DNA of 64,000 bases, from assembly GCA_051294905.1 (NCBI GenBank), contig CM119372.1:2854001-2918000 (forward strand), read 5' to 3'. The stretch comes from Botryllus schlosseri (Eukaryota). This document shows, one piece after another, positions 1 through 42,400 of this stretch (positions within the stretch are counted from its first letter, which is position 1; each line of letters begins with the position of its first letter). A program made the position numbers and the translations under genes. Below the pieces are notes generated by a model that saw only the letters and a program-made list of their open reading frames with translations, was not told where the DNA came from and ran no database searches.

Positions 1-1681
1 TTCCGAGACCGAAGTTCCGAGGCTGCTGTCCTTAGTTCTTCAAAGACCATTCAAATTGATGTTCTGGATTCAATATGACAGGCCCAATCTATGAGATAAC
101 AATTGCGTATGTGTCCGAAGTCGTTGACCTTTGCAGTTAGGCTTACGCAATCTCTCGAGTTCTAGTCATTGGAATTAGTCTGGTCAAGTCAAGTGCGAAC
201 ATGAATCGTATTAAATCTTTGCTCCGTACGTAGGCTAGTTTACGCAGTTGCCTTTAGAGCGAAAATTAAAGGTCTAGAAGACTACTCCTTGTCGCTTCGA
301 CATATTCCTGTCTTTTCATTGTATCGCATTTTTGTGGTGTATTGAACTGATAAAATTGCTAATAAACCAATGATGATGATGATAGAAATTGTCCAGTCCA
401 TTGATCCAATCGTACGCCGGGTACCTCCGCTTTGGTTGCCTATCACCTGGTCGTAACTCGTAACCACCAGCTCAGTGGTCGTAACACACCAGGATCGTGT
501 ACGAAACACTTTCGGACGGCCTATCGATTTGAGTAATCTCTAACTCTACCATTAAATCATAACGCATGCTACTAAGGATGACCTGATAATTGATTCGTGG
601 CATAGGGACGATTCTTAGTTCACGTGCATTATGTAAAATAATCCTTTGATTAAAAAAAAATGAATAAAACATTTGTTACCACACTTCAAGTCACGGCTCA
701 CCGGCAAACCTCTCGCGGCACCTATACGTTAAAATCACTGTTGTCGGGAAATTCATGTGACCATCATATTAAAGTTACTTTTTTACGTTGGAAAACGCCA
801 TCGTGACGTCATGTTGATAAAAGTCGCTCGCAGCCCTTGCCCCACCACCCGATATTGTCACGAGCCGCCACTGATATAATTTCACATCGCTACAATCATT
901 TTGCGACAGCCGATCAAATGTCAAATTTCCTCGCCAATCTGTGGGTCCAACACTCACACTTATTGGCATCATTAGCCAACAGCAGGATGTCCATTTTTTT
1001 TATCATAGACAACCAGGTTTTATGAAGTTACAATGCGTGTTGGAGGCCGGCATCTCGTAACGTTGCTCCAAGACAAGCTACATATATTTTTGAATTGCGA
1101 TGGTGGTTATGTTAAATGGATATTGCGTGATAACCATTCTACCAAATCGCAGAAAATTCATGTCACTGGTAGCTACATTCTTAGAGTCTACGATTTAAAA
1201 ACTCGCTTGGTAGTTTACGGAGTAGAAGTGACGATAAGCGAAATGCAAGTTGTATCGCGACAGCGGTTTATGATATTTATATAGGAATATTTATCATTAA
1301 TATTACTTTTATTCATATGCGCGTTGCGCAACTTTGTCTTCAAATAGACGTCGACCGGGGTGGGTGAGTCATGAATCACAATATTAGATATGAACGTAGA
1401 CAGTGAGCGATTTTCTGAGTTATGCAATCAATTTGACAAATCGAATGAAAGATCATTATCACGGTTTTGGCAAAACTGTAAACGTATGGAAAAAGTATGG
1501 AAGTATGGAAAATCAATTCCATACCATACTTGGGAAACTTCCATACCATACCATACCATACCATGCCCTGAGTACAAGGCCCTTCGTTCTGTCGTCACAC
1601 TTAAGCTGTCGTAATCCACAATCTGAAAGTTGCAAAGTATCTACGAGATAGTACTGTTGTAAACCAAAATACTTTCTTCAG

Positions 1682-4600
1682 AACTGGATAGAGACTTCTT
1701 GGATTCGGTAAAAAAATTTGTCGAGGAGATCGCCAACCCAGAAAAGCTCAAGCCCAAAAGATCTCGTCACAGGCTCTTGAATGCGAGGGAGATAGTCAAC
1801 ACTATTGCAGGATGCGATCAATTGTTTGCGGACAAAATGTTTAAAGCAAGCATGATGGTTGAGGTAAGAAGCTCTGGACCGAAAAATTAAGATTACAATA
1901 TATGTTCTATATAGACGTATGCCCTAGCTCAGGGGTGGGCATACGGGTATACGGGCTCAGGTATTTGATTATATAGTGAGGACATGCAGATAATATGTAT
2001 GCTTATTTGAAACAAACCTAACACTGTGTTGATGATATCGTACACGTGTCAGAAACAGTGGCGAGATTTCATAGATTGTTCAACCTCAATCACCAATTTG
2101 TCAAAACTATAGAAATGAAAGTCGGTTGTCCTGATTCTTAGAACAGGATTTAAATATGTGAGCAGCGATATGTTCATAGATTTACTAATTCCACTTTTGG
2201 TTCAGTTCCAGGACGCACAATGCTGACTGCATCATAACCATGTTAGCGACAAATACGCTTCTACTATGTGTATATAAAATATAAATACCCTAATTCCTCG
2301 CATACAGAGAACGAATCTACCTAAAGCACGCGCGAATCGCATTTTATAAGCATATCGCTTGAATAATTGAAACTGGAGAAGCAAATTTGAAATCACACTC
2401 GTGTTCCGAATTATGCCAATCTCGTTTAAGATTTCTGTGATATTTAGCAGTTGAAACCTTTCAAACTGCGTGGGGCTTGAGATCGGGATGTCGCGTCAGA
2501 AATTAAACATAAAAAATGATATAGGAAGTATTTACCTTAGAACCAGTGGTTCTCAAACTTTTTAAGATAAGTCCCTTCATGATGGTGAAAGATTTCGCGC
2601 CCTCCTCATCGTCTTATAACAAAACGCGCAACCAGGATGTTAGCAAACCTAACGGTAAGTTTGATGGCATGGAAGGTTACGACTGTGGATGAGAGATTTT
2701 AAAATATGAAATTAAGACTAAATACAGAGCAATAAATATGAATTGGATGTAAATCGCGCATAGCGCGAAAAATATTTCGCGCCCTCCTTCAGACGCTTTC
2801 ACGCCCCAACGTGGGGCGCGCCTTCCCCCCAGTTTGAGAACCGCTGCCTTAGAATTATCATGGTGAAATATAATAAGAAAAAGTTTAATCAAATCCCTGC
2901 AATAATTCGATTTTTAGTACGAATTTTATCATTAGTTTTAATTAGGCTCTTTAGACTCTCGCGGGCTGCACAGAACGGTGTTGCATGCCGCATGCGACCC
3001 GCGGGCCGTAGTTTGCCCACCCCTGCCCTAGCTAGACAAAATAATTCTTTTTAGGGCCAACAGTCCACACAAACAGCTAACCCATAGTTTACGTGTGTCT
3101 CTACTTCGTATTTAAATCGTTTGTTATTTCTCCATGATAAAAGCTAAAAATCAGAAATTCAGCGTTTACGACAGTAAGTGCTGGATGCAAACATGACTCG
3201 TGTATACCGCATGGGCATTGGACAACGGTGAATGTGCCAAGAGCGGTATGGCCATCTTTTCTTGAAGGAGTATGAATGAACCAGGGTTGTAACCAAGTCA
3301 CAAGGTTCCAAGTCACAAGTCAATCTCACTTTTATAGTTTCGACTCGAGTCAAGTCGAGTCATTTTAAATTCACGACTGAGTCAAGTCCGAGTCCAAGTC
3401 ACGCAGTTGAGTGTCGAGTCCGGGTCATGGTGTTTTGACTCGAGCCCGAGTCCAAGTCCTTTATTGACTGTTCAGTTCCGATATGATGTCATGTGGAACC
3501 CACTTTTTACAAATCTGCTCGTTGATATCGAATGCTTCGTATTCATAACATACTGGTTTTCCTTACTGTTAACACTTTCTGGCAGCATTTTCAAGTACCA
3601 GTATTGATAGACGCAGTATCTATATTGTGATAGCTTTACTATTCTTCGAAATTACAATGAAATGCCTGTCTTTATAGATCCAGTCTCGAGTGATATGACT
3701 TGGTCCGAGTCATGCGCAATGACTGAGTACAAGTCGAGTCAATAGACAAATTGACTCGAGTGGAGTCGAGTCATTTTTCATTTTCAGGAGTTTCAGGAAA
3801 ATGACTCGAGTCAAGTCGATTCACCGAAAAATCGCGACTACTCGAGTATGACTCGAGTCACTACAACCCTGGAATGAACCCTAATGAGTGTTTTGCAGAA
3901 CTCATTTTTCAATTATCTTTTCTAAATGGCCTGTGCTGTGCTGTAGTATACTCTCAATGCCACGCGCTTCCCAAGTTCGAGGCATAAAATGCAGCTCTGA
4001 CATAGGGTTGCCAAACGTCCGGAATTTCGTGGACATTTCCGTTATTTCACTGTAAAAACTGTGTCTGGGAGGAAACTCTAAAATATGACTAAATGTCCGG
4101 AATTCTGAAGGCTTGAAGTAGGCTGAATTCTTTTTCGCAAATCAACATAAACAATATGATTTTTATGTGGATTTATGCAATTTGAAATTTTTATTCGCGC
4201 TATGCGCGATTTATTCTAATGTATATTGATGTTAATATAGGGGCCATGCACCACCCTCTCAAAAATGAAATCAAAAGTAAATAAGAAATAACCAGCATTT
4301 ACTGAAATAAGTGTAATTGTAATCGCCTTTATATGATGACGGTATATTCCTACAGTTGGTTATGGCCGTTTGCATGCTTTAGTCAAAGACGGGTATGTTC
4401 TTTTTCTTTTATTCTGGGTATCGCGAAGATATTGGACGTTATCAGCTTCCAAAATAGACCATGAGTTAGTCTGGGTAAAATGACCTTTTTTAGTAATCAG
4501 GCTCTCAATTTTTGGGTTAGACCACGGAACCCTTTCAAATTTTAAATGAAATCACGACCTTAAAGGGTTGGAAACCACTGGATGTGCCACCAGCTGGTGA

Positions 4601-7600
4601 ATTTTATAGTTATATATGGAATGGAAGAACAAATATTATTGACAGAATTCATTCACAAAATTTAACAACCAGATACATATAATAAGCCCCAAGAAGTTGC
4701 TTCGATTACCCTATGGTTAGCCAAAGATAAGTGCTTTTTTGGCGGAAAGGGGGGGGGGTGGAGAGAAATGTTGTTTCGGATCTGGTTACCCTTACAACAC
4801 ACAACCAGATAATTGCACCGACCTAACAGTATTGAAGAGTTGTCAAACACAACACCGACGGACCGGATATGTTCCGCCACACGATTTCATCCAGCCCGCG
4901 AAGAAATCTGTTGCAGACCCAAGCAATCGTCAGAGCTCACATTAGAGTGGGTCCACCTATCTGTTCCACTCCACTTCCGTATACCAGTTTTAGATATCCC
5001 TGTCGTATACAGTCGATAAGCGCAAAGCTTTGCTGGTGTGACGTCATATTGACTGACAATGTGTTCATACCTCATAGTAAATCCCGCTAGTAGGCGCTAA
5101 AGAGTGTCCGGAACTTGAGCCACAAAAATATGGTAACCCTGCTCTGGCACCAAACAAGTTTTAGAACCACTATTCTGCACGTTACATATGCTATTAGGTG
5201 TAGACTATGTAGCCTATATATAGCTGTATGAAGTTTGACTCTCAGATCAGGACTTTATATTCCTAATAAAATTATTATTCTAGAAAAATGTGGAAGGATA
5301 CTATGCGTCTGAATGCCAGGAAGCAATCACCGAATACGCAAAAATGTTGGAGGTAAGGCACGTGCACTGTTGGACCAAGCGACACTGCAAACTAACCTTA
5401 TATACAGCCTATCTTCCGATATACGTAACCGTATAAACTTATCGTATAAATCTGATCCCACAGAAAATTCCCCTTCCTTTTCATTTCCAGCAACGATTGG
5501 TGAAGGCAGGGTTGGACCAGGTGGCGAGGAAAACGGCGGAGACGGAAACAAGAAAGCACGCTATGAGAAGATACGACGTTGCGCCGTCTATGGGGTCAGA
5601 AAAAATACGGAAAAAGTATAGCACCGAACTGCAACGAAGCATTGGAGAATGTTACAACAATACCATAAAACGGTTGGAAACACAGCAGGTATGTACTCAT
5701 CGACTAGGATCTGCATCAGCTTGAGAGTATTGGAATTTAATTCGTATACCTGTTCCTCAGAAACTGCGTCAGACTATGGTTAAGGAGCATACCGAAGCCG
5801 CAACACAGCAGTATTCCAAGTTTATGGAGGTGAGGGATGTAGACCGATCGCTTTGATCCCTATGGCAATATCTGTTAGGGTCAGTCTGATATTTGCTTTT
5901 CGATGTTCGTACTCGTTCATCATTGTACATTGGGGTTTGCAAGTGATCGAATAAGTTGTTGGCCAAGCGGTTGGTCTCTCCAAGCGAGATAGTGCAATGG
6001 AGATGGGTCCGGCTTTATGGAACGGTATGTCGTTGGTTCGGTCCCCGACCGGGTCGGCGGTTAAGACCAAAAAATCGAAAGCTGGAATCCGCGGTAATCG
6101 TGCTAGGCGCTCAGCATCCACAGATAGCTTGGGGGAGTAAAAACGGAGGTGCAGACTAACTGACCATACTGTCGTATCGCATCTCCATCGTAAAAAACAT
6201 CTCGATACATTCTTTTTCTCTTCTTTCTCTCCCCTAATGACATTTGCAATAGGATGATTGTAACTGCTCCTAACGCAAGGAGAGTTATTGAATCCAATTT
6301 TAATTGAACTCAAATCCCACGATCGATCCTGACAAATGATGATCCGTTGATTAAGGTTGAAATAATATATTCGAATGAACGATGTAACAAATGAATGTCC
6401 CAAATACAGCAAATAAGGTAGGTCGTGAAACTAGGTTTTAAAATAGTGGTCGCCTGCGGTTAGAGTTATAATAATGCAGACAAGCCTGCATGAAATAGAA
6501 CACAAGTTAAGGACTATAGCGACCACACACAACGTAAGCAACAACGTACATTCAGCTAACCGAATAAACTAAGAGGCGACGCCTTAACAACATATATAAA
6601 GGACGGAACACGTTGCGCATAATCAACTAATGAATATAATTACTACACTAAACACTGCAGTAACATGGCTCCTCCGAAACTGCAATTTGATGAAATTGTG
6701 GTTTCGCAAACAAATTAATTCAACAAAGGCCCGCATCGTCGGGGATCGACCCACAAATACATACTACATTAAGATCTAAAGACACGTATACGTACGATAA
6801 GCATACAGTATTAAAAGAATTCAACCATTGCCACGATACCAACTAAGCGAGATTTAGACAATCATTTCAATGGAACAACTACGGTTCTGGTTTAACCGAC
6901 TGACAGTGCGACTCAACTAGTATGAGCTTGTGTTTTGGCCGTTCCAGACAAGTCGGCTTTCCGTTAGCGTCTCTTCGCCAAACGAGTATCCTTGCTTTCC
7001 TCACCAACCCATCTTCTGAAGGATAAACGGAGTCGATTCTGCCCAGTTCCAGCGATGTCGTGGCAGATTTTCTTCCGACAGCAAGACGACATCACTGACT
7101 TTCAGATTCCGTACGACGCGTGTCCACTTTTGTCACCGTTGCAGAGATTGAACGTACTCTTTTCTCCACCGATTCCAAAATTCGTTGGTCATATATTGGA
7201 CTCGGCGCCACCTGCGTCTCAAATCAAAACCATCTTTTTGATACACGCCAGGTGGAGGCAGAACAATGGTGGATTTCAAAGTCAATGTGATTCGGAGTCA
7301 AAGGTTCGGGAGCAGAAGGGTCATTAATGCCTGAAACATCTAATGGTCGCGAGTTAACGATACATTCAACTTTACAAAGAAAAGTTCTGAAGGATTCGTC
7401 TGAGAATGTGACCAAAATTATTCAACAATGGGTCAAGAGCAGATTTTATCGCTCTAATCTGACGCTCCACATATCCAGACATGTGGCTGGCATGCGGTAT
7501 CGTAAACTTGAACTCGAAATAATCACAATTTTTCGACAACAGAAATTCACTTATTCTTTGCTGATTCATCGCCTTCAATTCTCTTTCAAGCTCGTTACTC

Positions 7601-10600
7601 GCGCCGACGAAATTGGTCCCACAGTCACAGCGCAATTGCTTGATTACTCCTCTCCGACAGATGAACCTTCTCAAAGCATTTATGAACGAATCCGAGGTTA
7701 AAGTATTCAGCGGTTCCAGATGAACTGCTCTCGAAGACATACAAGTGAAAACGACACAATACCTCGCGATTTCAGGGCATTTTTTCATTCTTCGGCTCAA
7801 ATGTTCAGTACTTTCTGAATATCTTGCATTTATTTCTTTGTTCTTACTGCATGTCGCCACCGGCCGCTTCTTCATTACATCAGACGGTCCTTCACCGTCA
7901 TGTTAGCCTGCATTGTGGTCGTGGCGCGGTACATCAGCGTCATTAACGGACGTTGCGCCCACATGGGCGGTTCCATGAGCTTTATCGGATGCCTTTGCAT
8001 CAGCGGACGTTACATCCACATGCGTGGTTCCACGAGATTTATCGGCGTCATCAGCGGACGTTGCATCCACATTCGCGGTTCTATGGTCGTCATCGCATGC
8101 CTTAACATCATGATTATCCATCTCGTGATCGATTGGCGTGTCTTTCGAAGCCATCTTCGAAATTGCTTCAGTCTCCCGTTCTTACGACAAGCGTATATTA
8201 TAAAACCGTAACTGCTCCTAACGTAAGGAGAGTTATTGAAACCACTTTAAATTGAACTCAAATCCCACGATCGATCCTGACAAATGATGATCCGTTGATG
8301 AAGGTTGAAATAATATATCCGAATGAACGACGTAACAAATGAATGTCCCAAATACAGCAAATAAGGTGGGTCGTGAAACTAGGTTTTAAAATAGTGGTCG
8401 CCTGCGGTAAGAGTTATAATAATGGAGACGAAATAGAATACAAGTTAAGGACTATAGCGACCACACACAACGTAAGCAACAACGTACATTCAGCTAACCA
8501 AATAAACTAAGAGGCGACGCCCTAACAACATATATAAAGGACGGAACACGTGGCGCCTAATCAACTAATGATTATAATCACTACACTAAACACTGCAGAT
8601 TATTGCAGTAACAATGATAATTTATACCCTATTGACGCTACTCTGCAAGGAATCACGGAATTGAGGTTGTCAAGTGAAGTTCCTTCCTGGCTACGTCAGC
8701 AATGGAGCTACTCCTCGGGTTTCATACCTACATTTCTTCCATGCGTTTCCGTATTTATGCAATTCATTGAGTTATTTGTACAATATCTAAACTAGGAATT
8801 ACCGACAATAGGCTGTAATGTGACGCTGTTATGAAGATTGTATTTTTATTGTATTTAGTTTATTGTTGTTAACGTGTTGCAACTGCTAATTAAAATTAGC
8901 GATACCATTACATTAGGGTGACCATTACATTACCTTCCTGTCTGTGAACATTGACAGTGTGTCAACGGTAGGATTGGATCGGTATAAGTGTGAATACCAG
9001 CAAGCTATCTGGTGCAACCAACTTGGCCAGATTCTCGACTATAGCCAAACTTTATATAATTGAATTTCCAATAAAAATGTAACGTGTGTTCGTTTGACTA
9101 GTCAACGAATATACGTATGTTACAGGATGTTCGTTAGGCCATATAATTCCGTGTATATTGCTCATTCGAACACGTTTCTCGAAGATTTTGACATGCCCAT
9201 TCTGGGTTTGTCCAACAGATCAGTATACTGGACAGAGAGAAACCGTCCACTAGTAGCTATCTATATCTTGGCCTATGGGTAAATATGTTATTATAAGTTC
9301 CAGTTTATTTTACTAAGGATGAAATATTCAACGCTACGGGTAATGAATCATTGGAAGAGATTCACCAGCGTGTGACGAAAACCATTGCGGTATCATTGGG
9401 CGACAAACTCAACACCGATGTGTTCCGGAAGCAAGTCACTGAAAGTTTTGGACGTTCGCGGGATGAATATGCCAAACAAATGGAAGAGAGTATTCAGTCA
9501 AAGGTAAATATTAACGCGATCACATCTTACGCCGTATAGTTAGAGCAATATGGCATTGACCTCCTCGTACTGTATTCTTGGAAAATATGATTGAACCTGG
9601 ACCGCCTTATTGTGTCGCATAATATTAAATCAGTATGTCAGGCAACTGTCAATATCACTCGAATAAGATCAGCTTCTTTAACAAATGTAAATTTGAGAAG
9701 ACTGTTCCTTAATATTTTGAATTGTGCATAGTAGATGGGAAACTTCATAATTGTGGTATCCGTCTGTATACGCCGGACAATCTGTCATCTTGTAATGCAT
9801 TTCTATGCTTTTCATCGTGGATGTCGTTTTTCAGACTGATGCAGAAAAGAGGCTGTTCTCACTTGTACAGCAGGAGCTCCGAGAAGAATGCGAAAACATG
9901 TGGATCGAGGTGCAAATGTTTTCCAGTTACAATATAATACTACAGTTAACTAACCTACGGATAGATGCGCATCACGTGATTCACGGTCGAGTGATGCTAC
10001 AGTCACAGATTTGTTGTCGCTTCATAGCATGAAACGGCAACGTAATTGTTAATCCCATAGATGACGACCTGACCGCTCAAATTTATTAACGTTGATATTA
10101 TTCGAAAGCTACAATCGCGCTGATTCTGATAATATACATTAGAGTTTCATTGAGGCAATGGAACCACCCCGAAATAGCTTTCAAAATCTGAAAATCGGCA
10201 TTGTTCTAATCCAGTGGTTCCCAACCTTTTTCGACTCATCGCCCCCTTTTCAAGCTCAACACCGATCATCGCCCCCCTAATTTTGTGAAACGGGTTGACT
10301 AAAAAAAAAGGTCAACTTTTCGGCTCGATGTCGAATTTTACACTTTTGCAACTAAATTTCCGTGGGTTGACTAAAAATAAAAGAAGGTCATTTTTCCGAT
10401 TTGACTCCAATACAGCCGTTTACCGCGTCATCGCCCCCCCTGTCGCCCCCTTCGGTATTTTCGCCCCCTGTCGCCCCCTTTGTTCATTTTCGCCCCCTTT
10501 CGCCCTCTTCGTCATTTTCGCCCCCCTAGACCGCCAAATCGCCCCCTGGGGGGCGATATCGCCCACGTTGGGAACCACTGTTCTAAACAATCGCAACGAT

Positions 10601-13600
10601 GCAGCACAAGTACCATAACAATGGTCTTTGCCTGGTTTGCGATTGTTCAGAACAATGCCGACTTTCAGACTTTGAGGGGTATTTCGAAGGGGGTTCCATT
10701 GCCCTGATCAGATTTTGATGTATATTATCAAAATCAGTGCGACAGTAGCTTTCAAATATGATCAACTTCATTAAATTTGAGCGCTCGGGTCGTCATCTAT
10801 GGGATTAGTAATGACGTTGCCGTTTCATGCTATGAAGCGACAACAAATCTGCGACTGTAGCATCACTCGACCGTGAATCACGTGATGCGCATCTATCCAT
10901 AGGTTATTTATTTATAATAATACGACTAAGCTCTAAGTAGGATGACGTCACAGTGATACTAAATAATCTCTCGGTATTACGTGAAAGATCTCACGCGTAA
11001 CGATTAGAGCTGGGTTAAATCCAGTACCTGAGTGATTCGATTCTTAATCACGTATTACGGTTCGAGTCGAGTCGAGTATTCGAGTATCCCGCATTATGAC
11101 GTCAGAACAGAATGTAGTATGTCAAATCCAAATATGTACCTTTTATGCCACCACAAAGAACATATTGCCTGTTATCAGCCACATTAGAGATACTTTGGTA
11201 TTTTTTCAACCATACCGATTTCATTGCACATCTTGACAATGTTGTGGGATGATCGTGACGTCGGAAATGTGTTATTTCCAGTAATGTGCGTAGCTTTGTG
11301 CTATGTCTCGTATGCTGCGACACGGCAAATCAAGGTTTCAAGCCCCCCTCAGTAGAAAATATTATCAAAACTACAAACCTCGCTAGTAAATTGACTTTCA
11401 GTTGCTCGGAGCATGTAATTTTAGTACTCGAAAAAATCGTATTTTACTACTCGACTCGAAACATTGAAATTAATACTCTGTTCGGGTTCGAGTACTCGAA
11501 TCATTGTGCCCAGCCCTAGTGACAATATGAGTCACGAAATGTTTTTTCAGAGAATAAGTAAATTTAAATCCGATCGTGGTCCACATATACTCCGTCATCT
11601 CGGAAGCAGGGCTGAACACTGCGATTCAAGTAATCAAATCCGAATCGAATAGTAATCGTAATTACTCAATTCGAGTAGTGAGAAACTAAGTTTCCGAATA
11701 TACTAAATGCTTAAGCCGCTTTTGGGAATGATGCTAAAAACGTTACGTGCCATTCCAACTATCGTAATACGATTTCAGATGAATAGATGCGCCCTCGCTC
11801 AGACTATAGGACAGCTGGATAATTCTAGTTGACTAAATACTATAACTTTTTTGCAGTAATCTTAATTCTAATTTAATTTCTGTATATTTTCTTAAAATGC
11901 AACGGGATAACTGTGTAGAGTACGACGTGTATCCAACTTAGTGTACAGATATTTGCTATTCTCATGATTATGAGCATTAACTCTGATTTCATAGTAAACT
12001 AATTTGATTTTTGTTGCATCTGTTTCTTATTCTGAATTTAATTTAATTTCCAATTGTTCAAACTTTGAAGGAATTTGTACAAAATGTTTGGTTATAATTC
12101 TAATTCCTATCTGATTTGGATAACTTGAAAATATTCCATTTCATCTCTACCTCCATCATTTCTCAGAGGCTGATGAAGTATTTTCAAGAGGACGAGCTGG
12201 ACAAACACAAAGACGACATCGACGCTCAAATCGCTGATAAGTTCTGGAGGAACGCTGTGAACGCTACTGAATACAAATACATTAGACGTTTGTACGAGAG
12301 AATGGAAGCTGAGAGAGATGTTATTAAAATTGAGGTGAGAACTCAAATATATTAGAAACTTCGCGTAAGCGCTAGGCGTAAGCTATTGGCGGGCGTGGTC
12401 GCAATGGAAATGGAAGCAGCAATAACTGATAAGGGTATTACCATCGTTTCCGCAGGCTGGATGGTGCGTTGCGTCGAAACAAGATAAAAAGCATCACACC
12501 ACGGTAAGCACTCTATCTTCGTTTCTCCAAACCACCAAAGGCTTACAGGTAGAGTTTCCATCGACATGGATGGAAAATTCATGATCAGGGTTGTAACCAT
12601 GTCAAAAAGTTCCTAGTCACAAGTCAATATCACCCCTCAGTGAGCAGAGGGTCAAATCCGAGTCGTAGTGTTGTGACTCGAGTCCGAGTGCAATCACTGT
12701 GTTCACTGTTCAGTTTCAAGTCCGGGTCACGTTCAATCCCATTTTTTACAACTCTGCATTAATGATATCGAATGCCTCGCATTCATAATATACCAACTTT
12801 CTTGACTCTTTTTGACCGTTTCTGGCCATATTTACAAGTAGTTCTACCAGTACTGATAGAAAAAATACAGTAATTTGGAAACTTTACTGTTCTTCGACGT
12901 TACAATGAAATGCCTTTATTGCCTATCCGAGTCCCGAGACATTACATCCTTGCTAAGCACACCAAAAACGTATAAGTCATTATCCATTAATTTCAACACT
13001 AATTAGTAATTATTAAAAAGGTCTCTATTAATTCGCCTAATAGTCTTAATCACGCCTATTTCCGTTTTTGGTAAGCTGGCGACTACAAAAGGGTTGTCAC
13101 TTCCATGCAGTTCTAACCGTGGCCTCGGTATCAAAATGAGGACACACTTAGGACAATGAACAATGTGGACATCGCTCATCAAAATAAACACAATCTGACA
13201 AATATGGACGACATGAAAACCTCCGTTATATATGTCAGGATTCATTCGGGTCACATTTGACTCGTTTGGACTAGACTGACTGCTAACTATCTCTATTCCG
13301 ATCGCAGTGAAGTTTATGTGCGACCTTTAGTGAATTCTCCTTTACATTGTCAGGTTGACAGCGATCAGCACTACGCCGCAAAGCTGAATGAGCTTGTGCA
13401 CGACTACAGCGAGAAATTAAAAATTGGAATCGTAAGGGATTTACATTCGGAATATTGTTGTTGCTTCTTTCATAGCCGAAGGCGTTGAACGATGGAAAAT
13501 TTGTTATAGACAAATCATTCGGAGGACTCTGAAGAATACGACAATTTCGAAAACGAACTCGATCGTTCGATCGAAAGGGATTTCTACGATTTCTGTAATC

Positions 13601-14205
13601 CTGACTGGAATCCAGCACTGGATAAACTGGATCACATGTTGGAAAAAGAATATTTCAAAGCACGAGAGATGCACAGCAGTCTTTGGGTAAGATACTTGAT
13701 AGTTATATTTGTATAATGCGGTTTTACAGAATGAATTATACAACTATAAATTTATTTTATTTCAAGGAGCAATTCAAGGAATCAGTGGAACTCGTTGTTA
13801 GTCATGTGGTTTTGAATATAGAAAAGGATTTTCAAGAGGTAAATTGTTGTTTTGTGTTTCTCTTGATACCCTGCTAGTAACTAAATGAACGTTTAGAAAA
13901 TGACCGACAAACATCTCGAACCTGGTGATTTCGCCGTGTACTTCGAACAGGTCATCCTAATTACAAAATTGATGCCCGAAGAGCCTATAAAGGACGCTGT
14001 AGAAGTGTCCAAAATTGCGAAGGAGCATTACGAAGCTGTACTGGAAGACAGGATGAATCAGTTAAGGTTGTTATTGGAAGAGGCGAATGAGAGAAATAAA
14101 GAACTGCGCCCGATGCGTTACTGCAGCACCCCACCACCGAAAGAAAACTCATTACAGAAACTTATAGGATTTTTCAGAAGCGGGAAAAAACGATCGAGAA
14201 AATGA
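1682..14205 (+). CDS. Atlastin/GBP-family (GB1/RHD3-type) large GTPase-like gene, 3' portion: end of G domain plus five tandem helical modules; most of the GTPase domain is presumably upstream of the window
   Basis: Eleven AG/GT-bounded exons splice in frame without stops: 1682-1863, 5284-5352, 5491-5688, 5761-5829, 9318-9503, 9835-9909, 12167-12334, 13354-13431, 13510-13686, 13767-13838, 13897-14205 (about 527 aa). The start, LDRDFLDSVKKFVEEIANPEKLKPK..LLNAREIVNTI..SMMVE|KNVEGYYASECQEAITEYAKMLE|..AMRRYDVAPSMGSEKIRKKYSTELQRSIGECY, aligns by eye with atlastin IDEDF..L.PENL..K..PKSMLQ|ATAEANNLAAV..A.D.Y...ME|..F...KKMGG.EF...Y...LE..I.E.Y. An AATAAA lies near 14364. Confidence 0.8.
1930..3025. 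mobile_element. hAT-Charlie-type MITE with a second MITE nested at 2544-2846
   Basis: CAGGGGTGGGCA ... TGCCCACCCCTG; perfect TSD CCCTAGCT. Nested CAGTGGTTCTCAAAC ... GTTTGAGAACCGCTG. Confidence 0.9.
3282..3871. mobile_element. hAT-type MITE rich in GACTCGAGTC motifs (related pieces at ~12587-12940, ~23390-23450, ~35840-36071)
   Basis: CAGGGTTGTA ... TACAACCCTG; perfect TSD GAATGAAC. Confidence 0.9.
4003..5141. mobile_element. hAT (Tip100-like) MITE
   Basis: TAGGGTTGCCA ... TGGTAACCCTG; TSD CTCTGACA/CTCTGGCA. Confidence 0.8.
5980..6250 (+). mobile_element. SINE family 1, degraded copy
   Basis: Collinear with the reverse complement of 21790-22048. Confidence 0.75.
6259..8613 (-). mobile_element. 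BEL/Pao LTR retrotransposon, internally deleted (non-autonomous), antisense in an intron of the GTPase gene
   Basis: Direct LTRs at 6259-6665 and 8207-8613 (TGTAACTGC...GCAGTAACA); 5-bp TSD ATGAT (6254-6258 and 8614-8618). Minus-strand integrase motifs FTCMSSRAVHLE, FINALRRFICRRG, DCGTNFVGA, VECIVNSRPL, EPLTPNH. Purine tract GGAGGAGCCA abuts the 3' LTR. Confidence 0.92.
9953..10904. mobile_element. Foldback MITE with ~260-bp TIRs and TA flanks, hosting a hAT MITE at 10212-10580
   Basis: ACCTACGGATAGATGCGCATCACG... and its reverse complement ending ...CGCATCTATCCATAGGT. Nested CAGTGGTTCCCAAC ... GTTGGGAACCACTG with TSD TTCTAATC/TTCTAAAC and internal TCGCCCCC repeats. Confidence 0.88.
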
Positions 14206-14977
14206 ATGTAGTCAGTTTCAAATGTCGGAGCTATAACCTATACCCATACACTACTTTCTTCCAAATCATGCAATATTCTTCATGATGAACTGCGTTACAA
14301 CGCGAAATAAGATTGGATCTAATTATTTAGAACTGTCGTGATTCGCTTTTATTTTTATCAATTAATAAACAGAAAATGCCAGCACACACAAGCTAAATTT
14401 CAGATATTTATTAAGGAAACTCGAAGCCTATAATTCAATACGACTGCGGAAGCCCGTGAATCCAGTTCGTAATATCCAAAAGAAACGTTCGGTGTACAGC
14501 GAGTTAATAATATTTTTCCATTACCCTACTAATATTGTCGATCAATATCAATAAATAGAATAATTAATTGGATATACGCGGAAATGAAAACGTGCTATTT
14601 ACATCTCAGCATCTCATAGTATGATAGAGTCTCGATTATTTTATGTCGAACGGGCGTTCCAGAAGAGCTAGGCAATGTCATCACTCGGTCTCAGTAAATA
14701 CAATTTGTCATCTTTCTTCGCGCGAGTATACCTATCCCAACTAAAGCAGACATGGACCGGAGCCGGACTGGAGTCTGGTACTGGTCGGCACCGGATTCGT
14801 ACTTTTTCATGCGGTCAGAATCGCTATTGAGTCCATTAATGAGCATGACAGTCGCAACTATACCAACCACACGCCAGTAGCTGCCAATACTAACCTATGT
14901 TAAATACAGACCTATTTGTTTTTATAGTCATGTTTCTTTTGTTGCAATATCCAATATATAACCTGAACCGCACCGTA

Positions 14978-16337
14978 CACTCTCAACAAATAGAGTGTGC
15001 ATTCACACCCGTGTAACACCCGTGATATATTAGTGTGATTGTACACCCTTGTGCGCGGGAAAAAGAACATAACTTGGAGTTACACCACGGTGTAAATCAA
15101 ACAAAACATTTTAATCCAAATGATGCCTGTACGCAGGGACGTAGGTGGACCAATTACATCAATTCACTTCTATTACAATTACATTTACATGCAAAAATTA
15201 ATTAATTGCATTTGGCTCAACAACAAATTACAATTGATTCAACTCTGATGGGCACATAGCACTTATATAGGGCTGGTGTGAACCTCTGAAAGGTTCAAGT
15301 TCGTGTGAGCGCGAACCTTTTTGGAAGGTTCTGTGCGAACGCGAAAGCGAACCTCATGACGTCACGTGACGTCATATTGCTAATTCCAACTCTACATTTC
15401 AGTGAAGTGATAGCCTATATTAATATACACGATACCTTGCGACGACTCGAGCCAGATGATGCCACAACCCTGAAGTACATATTGACGTTTTGAACGTCGC
15501 CAAATGTATCAATTGGGGCAATCAAATGATATATTAATCCCATAAAATCAATATCTTTCGTCGCTTTGCCAACAATTTCGACGAAGACTTACAAGGGAAT
15601 ATAAGCTTACGCCTTAACGGTCTATGCTAGACCGGACAATGTATTCGGCGTCGAAGTATTGCTACGTTGATATTGTGCAGAGTGTAAAACGAGTTTCTAT
15701 ACATGCTACCGATATTACCCCAGTAACAAGTGATACAGCAGTAGCCATCACCCCAACAGCACGGATTTGGTTTTCATGATACAATAAACATATGAAGTCA
15801 TGATTGACCCCGTACACTTGCTAGATTATTTACATCAGACAACGATATCAATTTCATTGATTGATTGAATAAGCATTATTCGGTGGCTATGTGTATTTCG
15901 CTCATGATGTTGTGTGATTGCGGGTCAAGCTGACAGCATAGAGAGTCACTAAATGTTCACAAACGGAGAGCTGGATATTTCGAGCGAACTTTTGTCACAA
16001 AGTAAGTGAAATATTTGAGATTTTCAAGGTGCTCGTTGATTTTTTATGCTGCCAGCGCTATGCATAGAGTGGCCCGCAGTTGAAATACAATAAATTTCAA
16101 CCAAAGATGTTATAATGAAGTGAAAATTGTAATACATGAAAAAGGTTCACAGTGCCGAACCTACCCAGGTTCGTTTGTGAAAATGAACCTCTAAATTTGT
16201 GAGGTTCACACACAGAACGCGAACGTGAACCTCTCGTTCACACCATCCCTACTTGTAACCGCGATATAATTTTGAGTTGGATTCTTTTTTCGTTTACCGC
16301 CTTGATGTGTGAATACACACTCTTTTCGCTAAGAGGG
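14978..16337. mobile_element. CACTC-ended (EnSpm/CMC-like) MITE with TA flanks, hosting the MITE at 15269-16250
   Basis: CACTCTCAACAAATAGAGTGTGCATTCACAC versus GTGTGAATACACACTCTTTTCGCTAAGAGGG form imperfect TIRs. Confidence 0.6.
15269..16250. mobile_element. ~1-kb MITE family (AGGG(C/A)TGGTGTGAAC TIR); further copies at 55936-56612 (partial) and 57513-58484 (inverted)
   Basis: TIRs and internal sequence are shared among three copies; the 57513-58484 copy has an 8-bp TSD CTATTCAC. Confidence 0.85.
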
Positions 16338-18544: not shown

Positions 18545-19668
18545 ATGAACATCTCGACTTCTGAGCACGCGTTCGACCCGAATATGTTACTTGTAACAAC
18601 TGCACCTCCCCAACTTCCACCCGACATTGGGGAAATAGAGCTATAGTTGATTTCGGCTGTTTTCGGAGCGACGTGGACATTCGGACTCACTTCGAATATA
18701 ATCGCACTGATCGCCATTTGCAAAATGAAAGAAACGCCTCTCAATGTATTCATCATTGACTTATGCTGTATCAATTCTTGCTTCGCCTTTCGTCATAACA
18801 CAGCTTGTGTATACCACCATCTGGAGGAATTATCCTTGGAACAGAGCAATTTGCGAGGCGACGTAGGCTATCCCATGGTGACGGTCGCACCGGCTGCGAC
18901 AGTTCATCTATTGCTCGTTCTCTCAATTTGGTGGATGTACGCTATCCATCGCCTCCACCGAGCCAGCAAGGTCATGACTGTCAAACTAGCCAAGAAGATA
19001 ACGGCTGCTATATGGCTAATTGCTATTATAGTTACTGTACCGCACAAGTTTACAATTTGGAAGTCAGATACCATGCTAATTTGACGATAACATTCTGCTT
19101 TTTCCGAGCGCAGCACAAATGGATGGTGCGTGTTTACAATTTCGTTGATGCCGTGGTCATAATCTTTGTCCTGGTAACGTTGATCATCATTCTGTGTATT
19201 GCTATCCGATTGTCGATGCGTGTGCAGGAATCGAAAAGACAAAAACTCTCCACAGATCACGAACTCCGTAAAGAAGACAAAAAGGCGTTACTGCAGCTTG
19301 CTTTGATCATTGCCTCTTTCCTGTTCGGTAACGTTCCCAGGATTTTCTATGTCTCCACAACTCTACTACACGACAATCAAAGTATTCGCTTCCACGCAGC
19401 AACCTTTCTGACTTCGTGGTTCCTGTTGAACTTCGTGGAATCCGTCAACCCCATTGAGTACAATCTCGGCTCGAAGTCTATACGGGAATCGACAAAACGC
19501 ACTTTGCACGGCATCTTCTGCAGATGCAGACCGCCTGCATCGCACGAAAACAGAAGCAACAGACCGCGACGGGCGAAAATAACGAAATGGCGGAGAATGA
19601 CGGGGCGAAACCTAGCTCGGATCAAGCTGTGTCATAACGGAGTTCCATGCCACTTGCAAATACTTTGA
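18545..19668 (+). pseudogene. Intronless class A (rhodopsin-like, peptide-receptor-type) GPCR pseudogene
   Basis: TM1 GLTSNIIAL, TM2 NVFIIDLC, ECL1 YPWNRAICE (in a shifted frame), TM3 end LSIWWMYAI (DRY position), TM4 W, TM6 FLFGNVP, TM7 NPIEY, then helix 8 and CRC. In-frame TAG stops at 18644 and 18864; frameshifts near 18785, 18870 and 19060-19080. Confidence 0.85.
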
Positions 19669-39450: not shown

Positions 39451-42400
39451 CCTAGGATATGGTATGGCGAAATGGTTTGCTCTATAAATTGTCTGCCCTC
39501 GGCATACATGGGAGGATGCTGAAATGGATATCAGATTTTCTTCGCGACAGATCGTTCTCGGTTCGCATTGGTTCCCCGCTATCCACCCCATTTCAACTTA
39601 AAAATGGTCTTCCGCAAGGTAGCGCTATATGCCCCATCCTCTTTGCAGAGATGACAAATGATTTGGCGACCTTATTGCAGGTGGGAAATGGTCTTTTTGC
39701 TGACGGCTGTGCAGTATGGGACAGTGAGTTGTCAATAACTAACGCAGCGGCGGAAGTTCAAAAATCATTAGTCGTGATTATCAAATGGTGCCCCGAGTGG
39801 GGTTTCAAGATCTCTACTGACAAGTCAATTGCCGTGATTTCACCAGAAAAATTAAAGTTGGTAATCATACGCTCGATTTCGGTGGAGTTCCGTTACGATT
39901 TGAAGATAAAGCGAAGTATTTGGCAGTCACATTTGATAGAAGACTAACATACAAATATCACATTGAAAATATTGCCTCGAAATGTACGAAGCGTTTGAAT
40001 ATGATACGACTCCTAACCGGTACTTCTTGCGGGGCAAGTCGATCTTCTCTATTACAATTGTAGCGAGCGATAAATAGGAGTACAATCGATTACGCGATGC
40101 CAGCATACTTTTTTGCCGCAAAGAAACATTTGGATAAACTGAATATCATACATAATCAAGCTCTGAGGCTCCGTTGCGGTGCAATGCGAAGCACTCCGAT
40201 TTGCGCTTTAGAAGCCGAATGTAACGAGATGCCGCTTCACACCTGGCATTTAGACCTTTGCCTTAATTATCGCTGTTTTTTTCTTGCTCATTCCGCCGAC
40301 AACAATCCAGCAGAGGAATTATTAGATGATACCTGGCACGAAATATACTGTTTGACAAATCCGAAATTTTGAACCTTCAACCTTCTGTCAAAAATCGACT
40401 TGCTCCAGCATTTCAGAATAGATACGTATCGACACACAACTGTGCAACCATGGAAAATTCCTGTTCCCTGGGTAGATTTTCATCTACTACATTTCAAGCG
40501 GTCAAATATTTCATTTGAACAGATACGTCAGGATTCCATGTCATATATAAAAGAAACAGACATTGGATACGACCATATTTATACGGATGGCTAAAAAAAC
40601 GACTTTGGAACGTTATGTGCAGTGTATATCCCAAACCACGTCGTGTCGATAACCAAACGATGTTCCTTGTATTCGTCAAGCTTCACAGCTGAACTAACTG
40701 CAATCTCCGAGGCACTGAGGTGGATTTTAGAAAACGGTTCGTATGTCCAGAAATATTTACTACTGTCGGACAGTTTCAGTGCATTGCAACATCTACAAAA
40801 AGCGCGTTTCCGAAGGATGAGTAAGATATCAAATGAAATTTTTACTAATCCACTTGAGCTTGAATTCCAGAAAGTACATATTATCTTCGTTTGGATACCA
40901 GCACGCGTCGATATTAAAGGCAACGAGACGGCAGACCAATTGGCAAAGTCCGCAGCAACGTCATCTGAAGGGCGGAATCCTACAATTACAGTTTTGACGA
41001 GGCATGAAGCGAAGCAAGTCATACTGAAATATTGCAAGCAAATTTGCAACCAACATTACCTCGAAGAAGATAAAGGCTATCATTTCAAACTTTTTCGTGA
41101 ATCCCTTCATCATAGTACACCACCTCTTGAATATCGCCTAAGCGACCGAATATTATTTCGATTGCGCTCAGGTCATTGCGGATTGAACGCACACTTGTTC
41201 AAGATTGGATCGCACCATCACCAAATTGTAGCTCCTGCAATGAATCTGAGACGGTTGAGCACTTTATATTATATTATATTATATTATATTATAAAGTGCT
41301 CAAGCGTCTCAGATTCATGCAAGGGGCAGTTCATTATAAAGTTTATAATGAACTGCCCCTTGCATGAATTTCATAGAACGTTCCTGCGTCGTGCTTGTGT
41401 TTGTATGAACATTCCATTTCGCCTCGTGAACTTACTAACGGTTCCAACCATTTTGAAATACGTGGTAGAATATGTGCTGAGTTGTGATCGATATATTTGA
41501 ATTGCTGCTAATTAAAATTGAGTATTGTCGTGGCGCACAAGACCTAATGGTGATAGGCGCCACTCTTTTTCTTCTTCCAATAAATAAATAAATGATGTGG
41601 TCTCAAATTAAAGATAAAATCTGGAAACTGTTTTTGCCAGCAACTATTTCCCTAGAAAGCTGTCTTTCGCGGCCACATATTATGGAACATTCATTTTGTA
41701 ATTATTAATACAATGTTGATGCATCACTTTCATAAAAATAGTGATAACATTTATTTCTAGGGAAACTTTTTTACAGCATGCGGGAGCTTCCTAACTTATC
41801 AGAATTTATTTAGTATGATGTTTTAAGCTGTTTTCTGGAATTTTGATCGCAACTTTCTGAACCTTTTTCTACATCCTTTATCCAGTATTGCGCAAAATGT
41901 GAAGAAGTCATTTAAAAAAATGCTATAAAACTATTTCTAGTATGGGTCTATTCCTTTCGATTTGCATAACAAAGATCTATGTGTTGGTGCATCTTAATAT
42001 CATCTGTGACGCAATAGTTGGCTCGCAAGCTAGAAGTTCAGCAGCCCCAGCCAAGCACGGCAGCGCCCGAACTAACTTAGAAGTTGAAGTATGACTTGGA
42101 TTTTGGCCAAGCCCGCGCAAACGGAAACCGATTGTGTCTCGTCTTTCGTGGACAAGTTTTGTTGAGACAGCTTAATTAGTTTAACGCTGTGTTTATAAAA
42201 GTATACATTCGGTATTTTGCAGGTAAGAAGTGATAATCTTGATATATGTGAAATAACAATCTAAGGAAGTGGATATCCAACTTGCGACTGTTACAACTGT
42301 TGGGTTATACAACGGAACCTTTCGAATATCTCATACCCTAATATTTTTTTTTTAAATTTGCGCATAAATTCAACTTATGTTAACATAGGTGCAACTATGT

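Follow-up and report, generated by a model that had tools for sequence, protein, structure and literature searches.

The window, a stretch of 64,000 nucleotides (64 kb) of Botryllus schlosseri DNA, contains on its plus strand the final (3') two-thirds of a gene that is expressed and encodes a protein of about 820 amino acids (aa). All 11 exons named by a first-pass annotation are found where it had placed them. They have the canonical splice borders, AG at the acceptor and GT at the donor, and share one open reading frame. The first of these, E0 (1682..1863, 182 nt), encodes the end of a G domain, i.e. its last helices and a linker; it is entered in phase 1 and left in phase 0, and all boundaries beyond it are in phase 0. 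It is followed by five modules, each encoded by a short and a long exon. In module 1, the short exon (5284..5352, 69 nt) encodes helix 1 of an atlastin-type three-helix bundle and is the counterpart of a 72-nt exon in this genome's canonical atlastin gene, and the long exon (5491..5688, 198 nt) encodes helices 2 and 3. The corresponding exons are 5761..5829 (69 nt) and 9318..9503 (186 nt) in module 2, 9835..9909 (75 nt) and 12167..12334 (168 nt) in module 3, 13354..13431 (78 nt) and 13510..13686 (177 nt) in module 4, and 13767..13838 (72 nt) and 13897..14205 (309 nt) in module 5. The last of these exons also encodes a C-terminal tail of basic and aromatic character, and the frame stops at a TGA codon (14203-14205). 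The 3' untranslated region (14206..14500) extends at least to 14500, because a transcript contig from run X1 continues that far or beyond. Once the translations were checked, the endings of the short exons read as previously quoted, and the first four modules measure 89, 85, 81, and 85 aa.

As assessed with RNA data, nine of the 10 junctions implied by these exons, starting with 1863->5284, are used as GT..AG joints. The tenth (12334->13354) is unused and is replaced in runs X1, X3, and X18 by two joints, 12334->12456 and 12503->13354, and these delimit a further phase-0 exon (12456..12503, 48 nt, 16 aa) absent from the first-pass annotation. This exon encodes a variable linker, aligning to a longer, low-confidence linker in proteins of Styela clava, and lies between modules 3 and 4. 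The exon pairs are therefore not strictly consecutive, as had been proposed. Evidence for the joints comes from a 2929-nt contig of X1 (depth 59), a 1606-nt contig of X3, and the raw RNA-seq reads of X18, in which depth is low (2-8 reads per joint); the raw reads of X22 give zero depth on all exons. Runs X1-X9 were presumed by guess to be RNA, no run being on record as such. Transcript sequence extends 948 nt upstream of exon E0.

The introns bear many transposon insertions, as the first-pass annotation had noticed. The intron between 5829 and 9318 harbors, outside the gene product, the remnant of an LTR-like retroelement on the minus strand (6260..8598). It is flanked by direct repeats of ∼400 bp (6260-6660 and 8208-8598), which are 95-96% alike, and its minus-strand ORF (7372-7902) contains an integrase-core (rve) fragment with an E value of 1e-4, below the Pfam cut-off. 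There are also a 234-nt inverted repeat (9935-10922) and high-copy repeats (2905-3872 and 10165-11616). A repeat search yielded transposon repeats only, with no DNA-level repeat among the module exons. That the locus is a mere remnant, decaying or non-coding, whose frame is open by accident is extremely improbable: although its introns are large and full of transposons, and depth is low in X18 and nil in X22, 12 exons keep one reading frame across 1.6 kb with all borders canonical, spliced transcripts occur in three runs of three studies, and the product is colinear over its full length, catalytic motifs included, with conserved Styela proteins.

The exons for the bulk of the G domain, including the P-loop and RD motifs that the first-pass annotation had expected upstream, as well as DTQG, are present 4-11 kb 5' of the window, on the same strand as the stalk exons and in fitting phase. 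On the contig (G000:C2), they comprise a P-loop exon with its arginine (2842713-2842925), a switch I exon with the motif TTG (2843084-2843230), a DTQG exon (2843944-2844099), a candidate 60-nt exon obtained by an AG..GT scan and alignment with Styela proteins (2847758-2847817), and an RD-motif exon that ends in phase 1 (2849923-2850175). These five exons, counting the candidate, total 829 nt. The joint between the RD exon and position 1682 is predicted; the RD exon ends with one extra base, which is compatible with the phase-1 entry of E0. When the 5.8-kb intron was searched with a segment of protein P0001 for a missing piece of the G domain, no convincing match was found. Directly 5' of the first G-domain exon, there is a possible ATG-TTT start followed by a 35-nt intron, which is a candidate only. 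All four motifs looked for are present, namely a G1 P-loop (G-x-x-R-x-G-K-S) with the catalytic arginine, the switch I threonine, G3 (D-T-Q-G), and G4 (R-D), and they line up with invariant columns of the Styela relatives. These four motifs define the atlastin subfamily of GB1/RHD3-type GTPases. The atlastin-type G domain is apparently catalytically competent.

That the gene derives from an atlastin, as first proposed, is borne out by its G-domain exons, which match atlastins better than guanylate-binding proteins (GBP). In phmmer searches against PDB sequences, the DTQG exon matches atlastin-1 with an E value of 1e-6 and GBP1 with 0.012, whereas 13 of the 14 matches of the RD exon are atlastins and none is a GBP. 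The family profile matches canonical atlastins at about 1e-75. Atlastins are also the best structural match of the model of P0006, a Styela protein 30% identical to the product of the window's gene; it superimposes on the G domain and bundle of ATL1 with a Foldseek E value of 9e-26 (rmsd 3.2-3.5 Å over ∼410 columns). Overall, the G domain is nearer to atlastins than to GBP, RNF112, or Sey1p. Moreover, three successive introns are identical in position and phase to those of the gene on contig C11 that encodes this genome's canonical atlastin: one in phase 1 before a D/E-x-D-x-x-F motif, one in phase 0 before helix 1, and one in phase 0 after helix 1. The gene compared was that on C11; the first-pass annotation had referred to human ATL1. 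Searches for protein homologues returned no match for exon E0 and a single one, P0001, for the DTQG exon.

It is very improbable that the locus is a GBP orthologue and not an atlastin derivative. Such an assignment would fit the match of an upstream exon to PF02263 (GBP N-terminal domain), the C-terminal region, which like that of GBPs is long, helical, and devoid of transmembrane segments, and the appearance of GBP1, GBP2, and GBP5 among the structural matches. PF02263 is likewise the only family in the precomputed Pfam annotation of the Styela relatives, and the 11 exon translations, scanned one by one, match no relevant Pfam family. For PF02841 (GBP_C), there is no match on single exons, and a genome profile search was silent, as it was in all control genomes. 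The C terminus is a basic run lacking a cysteine at the fourth-last position, i.e. there is no CaaX box.

The first-pass annotation had further claimed that the stalk arose by serial duplication of the bundle. Tandem repetition of the bundle module is seen at the profile level for modules 1-4, and the case for module 5 is weak. Module 1 is the three-helix bundle of atlastins itself; against a profile built from 24 canonical atlastin bundles, hhalign gives 98.5% and an E value of 3.3e-15, with 80 columns in register. Module 2 matches both module 1 (85%, E 5.8e-6) and the atlastin bundle (78%, E 1.9e-5), and module 3 matches module 4 (66%, E 5.7e-5, 73 columns). When the profile of the whole stalk was aligned to itself with a shift of one module, modules 2-4 fell onto modules 1-3 over 257 columns with a score of 60.1 (E 5.9e-7), compared with 32.2 for the reversed control and a mean of 15.5 (sd 2.7, maximum 23.8) for 30 column shuffles. 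Four module-to-module alignments, as well as those of modules 1, 2, 3, and 5 to the atlastin bundle, are in register, and the phase-0 intron inside each module lies within ∼3 residues of a common module position.

These data have to be weighed against the possibility that only module 1, perhaps with module 2, derives from the atlastin bundle, and that the remaining stalk is an unrelated charged helix with coincidental exon sizes. Indeed, of the 10 module pairs compared as single sequences, two reach a z of ∼3 and eight are no better than shuffles, and HMMER with an atlastin bundle model finds module 1 alone significant in the protein. Module 4 matches the atlastin bundle at 4% and out of register, and the matches of modules 3 and 5 to it (E 3-5e-4; for module 5, 38%, E 3.3e-4, in register) are at the level once reached by a reversed control (E 6.5e-4). 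We nevertheless consider this explanation unlikely, because the shift alignment lies well over both of its controls, modules 3 and 4 match each other, register is kept in the alignments (module 4 against the atlastin bundle excepted) along with the intron positions, the pattern of secondary structure is identical across modules in the P0006 model, and two further Styela proteins, P0029 and P0049, each have three tandem significant HMMER matches to the atlastin bundle. The inclusion of modules 4 and 5 in the repeat rests on the chain from module 3 to module 4, the shift alignment of the whole stalk, and the predicted structure.

In the P0006 model, which is that of a relative and not of the window's own protein, and was computed from a 10-sequence alignment (mean pLDDT 79, stalk mostly 80-95, pTM 0.51), the stalk consists of five three-helix units joined by continuous connecting helices. 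Within each unit, helix 1, a loop, helix 2, and a second loop precede helix 3, which runs into helix 1 of the next unit. The equivalent of module 5 is itself a three-helix unit, and residues 585-603 form a disordered stretch. Across the whole predicted protein encoded by the window's gene, we found no transmembrane segment; Kyte-Doolittle means over 19 residues peak at 1.28, within the G domain, compared with 2.46 at residue 463 of Ciona atlastin-2 (P0103). The product is predicted to be a soluble rod, and the lack of transmembrane segments marks it as an atlastin-derived paralogue rather than a canonical atlastin fusogen.

The suggestion that this gene represents an undescribed class finds no support. 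Five annotated Styela clava proteins have the same colinear five-module stalk, and tandem bundles occur in moth and barnacle proteins. The Styela relatives (XP_039255813, XP_077967345/6, XP_039268286/8, P0022, and P0024) are annotated "atlastin-1-like," "atlastin-like," "golgin subfamily A member 6-like 22," or "uncharacterized." With sizes of 812-839 aa, they are colinear with the predicted spliced protein at ∼30% identity, sharing its five modules, linker position, and type of tail, but have a linker longer by 20-45 aa. A quick tree (34 rows, unrooted), which has long branches and does not include the silkworm homologue discussed below, groups the window's protein and its Styela relatives in a seven-row clade (SH-aLRT 99) on a long tunicate branch apart from Ciona and vertebrate atlastins; the terminal branch measures 1.43 changes per column. 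Moth and barnacle atlastin-like proteins display three to five tandem matches to the atlastin bundle. Two moth proteins, P0056 and P0071, have five such matches and a hydrophobic stretch in the fifth module, and they are separate from the tunicate clade in the same tree, so the multiplication in moths looks independent. The genome carries at least 10 atlastin-type loci, all seven G3-exon loci examined in it were atlastin-type, and Styela has at least five paralogues. Searches of the genome with E0 and the long exons of modules 1 and 5 matched only the gene itself, indicating that no close stalk paralogue is detectable in this way. In the portions of the literature on ascidian or tunicate atlastins and on tandem three-helix bundles in atlastins that were available, we found nothing on this family. 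This architecture is therefore shared, similar repeats being present in sea-squirt, moth, and barnacle proteins of the databases. Taken by itself, the locus is an ordinary member, and an expressed one, of a gene family that is annotated but, as far as our searches show, unstudied.

When compared with canonical atlastins (ATL1-3, Drosophila atlastin, P0103, and the C11 copy), the protein shares a G domain with the P-loop arginine, DTQG, and RD, the module 1 bundle, and the three intron positions and phases, but it lacks the transmembrane hairpin and possesses, in addition, four bundle-like modules and the 16-aa linker exon. Its tail is basic and aromatic, whereas canonical atlastins have an amphipathic helix after the transmembrane segments. 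A parallel in design is BmAtlastin-n of the silkworm, described in the available part of the report as a cytoplasmic 770-aa atlastin homologue with an atlastin-family G domain, a long helical "coiled-coil" middle region, no transmembrane segments, and an antiviral role (PMC4926086). By that description, to which the comparison is confined, the two proteins have in common the atlastin-type G domain, the long helical middle, and the absence of a transmembrane segment, and the antiviral role is, by analogy, a functional precedent. Sey1p is membrane-anchored, and in sequence and G-domain structure it is much farther from the window's protein than atlastin is. To our knowledge, its bundles are not known as exon-module repeats. 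Multi-bundle stalks are already known in Sey1p and GBP1 from the accessible sections of PMC4576867, according to which fusion by Sey1p requires its long stalk; the likeness to Sey1p/RHD3 is in design only, i.e. several three-helix bundles joined by continuous helices in the P0006 model. The same sections state that the helical region of vertebrate GBPs begins with two three-helix bundles (PMC4576867). Vertebrate GBPs are also soluble large GTPases of the same superfamily with a long helical region and a C-terminal membrane-targeting element, but they differ by a CaaX lipid anchor and an α12/13 hairpin, and their G domain is clearly farther away than that of atlastin. Ciona is stated to lack canonical GBPs in the part of PMC4926086 at hand.

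We conclude that the gene probably encodes an expressed, soluble, atlastin-derived GTPase with a multiplied bundle stalk. Its product is likely to be a paralogue of the ER-fusion GTPase atlastin that has lost the two transmembrane segments and acquired four further bundle-like modules. Each module is coded like the original, with helix 1 on a short exon and helices 2-3 on a long one, and the modules would stem from tandem duplication of this exon pair that took place before the lineage diverged from that of Styela. The G domains may dimerize upon GTP binding, as in atlastin, Sey1p, and GBPs, and the long rod and C-terminal tail could then bind, tether, or coat membranes peripherally. By analogy, we tentatively place the likeliest role in GBP-like cell-autonomous defense or organelle tethering, rather than in ER fusion.

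With the same architecture, the role might be a housekeeping one, the soluble protein regulating or tethering membranes of the ER and organelles, for example in heterodimers with membrane-anchored atlastin. The G-domain dimer interface would be of the type common to atlastin, as the structural matches suggest; the gene is expressed in several RNA data sets that are unrelated to one another and involve no known challenge, and Sey1p fusion depends on a long stalk, as stated in the accessible text (PMC4576867). But the number of paralogues and atlastin-type loci in the two ascidians, together with the long terminal branch, would be a birth-and-death pattern more typical of immune GTPases, and the silkworm homologue without transmembrane segments is antiviral in the available account (PMC4926086). 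We therefore hold a housekeeping role to be possible but rather unlikely. A bolder proposal, which is speculative and in our view doubtful, goes further than the defense or tethering role favored above: ascidians would have made of atlastin a growing family of their own, composed of immune GTPases that are soluble and rod-shaped, by multiplying the bundle five-fold and replacing the hairpin with an amphipathic tail, and moths would have arrived independently at the same design. If true, stalks like those of GBPs or Sey1p would have been re-invented convergently from one block, and the mechanism visible here would be exon shuffling.

The gene illustrates how a stalk of the dynamin superfamily can be built, with a bundle encoded by one exon pair copied in tandem into a rod and the anchor lost. 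Considering that the same multiplication can be detected in atlastin-like proteins of moths and a barnacle, evolution seems to have used the atlastin bundle as a building block repeatedly. Long atlastins of the soluble kind may have an immune effector role, which has been suggested for BmAtlastin-n. In that case, the niche of GBPs would be theirs in animals that have none, and ascidians would offer a tractable system for understanding how stalk length tunes the tethering or coating of membranes.

We read positions 1-15000 of the window, C2:2854001-2918000 in the 495-Mb assembly of this animal, and checked all 11 exons that the first-pass annotation had listed for the atlastin-like GTPase gene at 1682-14205, i.e. 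exon E0 (1682-1863) followed by five modules of one short and one long exon (the stalk). All 11 have an AG acceptor, a GT donor, and the expected length, and they form a single open frame to 14205. When reads and contigs of four sequencing runs were mapped to positions 1-14500, nine of the ten proposed splice junctions were recovered as GT..AG joints in runs X1, X3, and X18. They are supported by a 2929-nt contig of depth 59 in X1, a 1606-nt contig in X3, and two to eight raw RNA-seq reads per joint in X18; X22 has zero reads on every exon in this interval. X18 is RNA by record, and X1 and X3 are RNA by guess only but can hardly be anything else, because their contigs are intron-less with GT..AG gaps. 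The tenth junction, 12334->13354, is unused; an overlooked 48-nt phase-0 exon lies between joints 12334->12456 and 12503->13354. Save for this exon, the earlier observation is essentially right.

The annotation had also anticipated GTPase exons further upstream. A Pfam GBP-domain model matches the same strand of the same contig 10 kb upstream of the window (C2:2843944-2844117), and we examined the 30 kb upstream by tblastn and manual reading, guided by the database protein P0001, our sole relative at that stage. This revealed a P-loop exon, with an arginine in its G-x-x-R-x-G-K-S motif, as well as switch I and D-T-Q-G (G3) exons, all on the same strand, and an R-D (G4) exon, which ends with one extra base, as suits exon 1682-1863, which starts in phase 1. 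In the intervening intron, a 60-nt AG..GT candidate exon aligns with a block kept in the Styela relatives. The five upstream exons total 829 nt, which is consistent with the 948 nt that the X1 contig carries upstream of exon 1682. The first recognisable coding exon lacks an ATG, and the sequence before it (region G000:C2:2842670-2842712) contains a stop in the same frame; there is a possible ATG-TTT mini-exon 35 nt upstream.

An atlastin origin of the gene is supported by several searches. Against PDB sequences (phmmer), the D-T-Q-G exon matches atlastin-1 at 1e-6 and GBP1 at 0.012, and the R-D exon has 14 matches, 13 to atlastins and none to GBPs. When the R-D exon was used to search 1.84 billion representatives exhaustively with HMMER, nine proteins were recovered, three of them from Styela clava (753-839 aa), with automatic names including "atlastin-1-like," "uncharacterized," and "golgin subfamily A member 6-like 22." A profile of these Styela matches added two Styela paralogues and one Logan-contig protein at 84-98% coverage, followed by canonical atlastins at ∼1e-75, aligned over the N-terminal half only. 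The spliced window protein has 819 aa, counted from the first exon that could be recognised; along its whole length it is colinear with the Styela proteins, at ∼30% identity. In a quick, unrooted tree of 34 rows, the window protein lies on a long branch within a 7-row clade (SH-aLRT 99), nested in a 10-row group (nine Styela proteins and one Logan-contig protein). This tunicate group is separate from the canonical atlastins of Ciona and vertebrates and from long forms of moths. In the B. schlosseri genome, the G3 exon reads D-T-Q-G in all seven loci read. Contigs C1, C4, C6, C10, C11, and C13 carry at least ten more loci with an atlastin-type G domain, and several of these loci are clustered (C6 at ∼9.85-10.36 Mb, C4 at ∼25.26-25.32 Mb, C10, and C1). 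GBPs are reported as not found in Ciona in an excerpt of PMC4926086, a point repeated in an excerpt of a review (PMC9005921).

Gene structure agrees with this origin. The match to atlastin introns, which the annotation proposed for human ATL1, holds against this genome's own canonical atlastin (C11:27383363-27394524, read from its 3' part): the window gene has three introns in common with it, identical in position and phase. In the C11 gene, a phase-1 intron lies immediately 5' of the D-I-D-P-E-F motif and a phase-0 intron 3' of the helix closing the G domain; a 72-nt exon then encodes helix 1 of the bundle, and a long exon encodes helices 2-3 and continues into the transmembrane region.

We then compared the modules with each other. 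In single-sequence local alignments, z reaches ∼3 for just two module pairs, 1-2 and 1-4, the other eight of ten pairs not rising above shuffles. With profiles built from seven family members, modules 1 and 2 (85%, E 5.8e-6) and modules 3 and 4 (66%, E 5.7e-5) match, the remaining pairs scoring 0.2-4%. In comparisons with a profile built from 24 canonical atlastin bundles, module 1 (98.5%, E 3.3e-15) and module 2 (78%, E 1.9e-5) are followed by module 5 (38%, E 3.3e-4), module 3 (32%, E 4.9e-4), and module 4, with a weak, out-of-register match (4%). Since E 6.5e-4 was attained by one reversed-profile control, none of modules 3-5 is secure on its own. The best self-alignment of the stalk profile after identity is a one-module shift over 257 columns, placing modules 2-4 on 1-3 (score 60.1, E 5.9e-7), versus 32.2 for the reversed control and 15.5 ± 2.7 (maximum 23.8) for 30 column shuffles. 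Register is kept in all four printed module-module alignments and in those of modules 1, 2, 3, and 5 with the atlastin bundle, and the module-internal phase-0 intron falls at the same position each time, within ∼3 residues. The proposed multiplication of a bundle module is strongly supported for modules 1-4 taken together, and more weakly for module 5. A repeat search found no DNA-level repeat between module exons, so the copies are old, and since Styela has all five modules, the multiplication predates the split from Styela.

Structure was predicted for Styela P0006, a relative at ∼30% identity, from a 10-sequence alignment (mean pLDDT 79, pTM 0.51; stalk blocks mostly 80-95). Mapped onto this model, the short exons are wholly helical and extend the final helix of the module before them, each long exon forms a loop, helix 2, a loop, and helix 3, and the 48-nt linker exon matches the sole disordered stretch (585-603). 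Foldseek ranks ATL1 top (E 9e-26, rmsd 3.2-3.5 Å over the G domain and module 1), and the modeled stalk has the topology of Sey1p, whose four bundles are described in an excerpt of PMC4576867. Transmembrane-level hydropathy is absent along the window protein, its maximum being 1.28, in the G domain, compared with 2.46 in Ciona atlastin-2. The tail is basic, with aromatic residues conserved across the family alignment and a moderate to high hydrophobic moment (0.5-0.9), from which we infer that it may bind membranes peripherally.

The introns and flanks carry other features. The direct repeats of an intronic LTR-like retroelement remnant (6260-8598) are ∼400 bp long and 95-96% alike, and its minus-strand ORF contains a fragment of an integrase core (E 1e-4, under the Pfam cut-off). 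A foldback or MITE-like element (9935-10922), in which 234-nt inverted arms of 86% complementarity flank a C-rich core of short repeats, shows very high read depth in RNA-derived contigs. High-copy transcribed repeats, with summed X1 contig depths in the thousands, occupy 1-484, 2905-3872, and 10165-11616; near 368-383 there are reads whose loose ends resemble poly(A). A plus-strand open frame of 289 aa (18799-19668), downstream of the GTPase gene, matches the rhodopsin-family 7TM model weakly (E 1.4e-5, under the Pfam cut-off) and may represent a GPCR, as a gene or a pseudogene. Plus-strand open frames at 39456-41500 that encode reverse-transcriptase and RNase H domains indicate a retroelement.

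Finally, the suggestion of an undescribed class of GTPase was too strong, as annotated proteins of ascidians, moths, and barnacles already have this architecture. With an atlastin-bundle model, HMMER places five full-length matches in tandem in each of two moth proteins of 750-770 aa (P0056 and P0071), three matches in barnacle P0039, three each in Styela P0029 and P0049, and two in P0001, which also has a transmembrane segment. P0056 and P0071 have a hydrophobic 19-residue stretch within the fifth module. Two or three complete atlastin-like G-domain and bundle units occur in tandem in each of P0005 and P0008 (Macrostomum), P0028 (tick), and P0032 (tsetse); these proteins could be genuine fusions or else products of merged gene models. 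At the level of listings, we found no literature on the tunicate family for atlastin with ascidian/tunicate or tandem-bundle topics. Novelty is also countered by a studied insect analogue, a silkworm atlastin homologue of 770 aa described in an excerpt of PMC4926086 as cytoplasmic and antiviral, with a middle domain termed coiled-coil and no transmembrane segments, and by the multi-bundle stalks of Sey1p and GBP, which the architecture of the window protein mirrors. Our best inference is that its G domains would dimerise in a GTP-driven manner while the tail would bind membranes peripherally, possibly in GBP-like defence.
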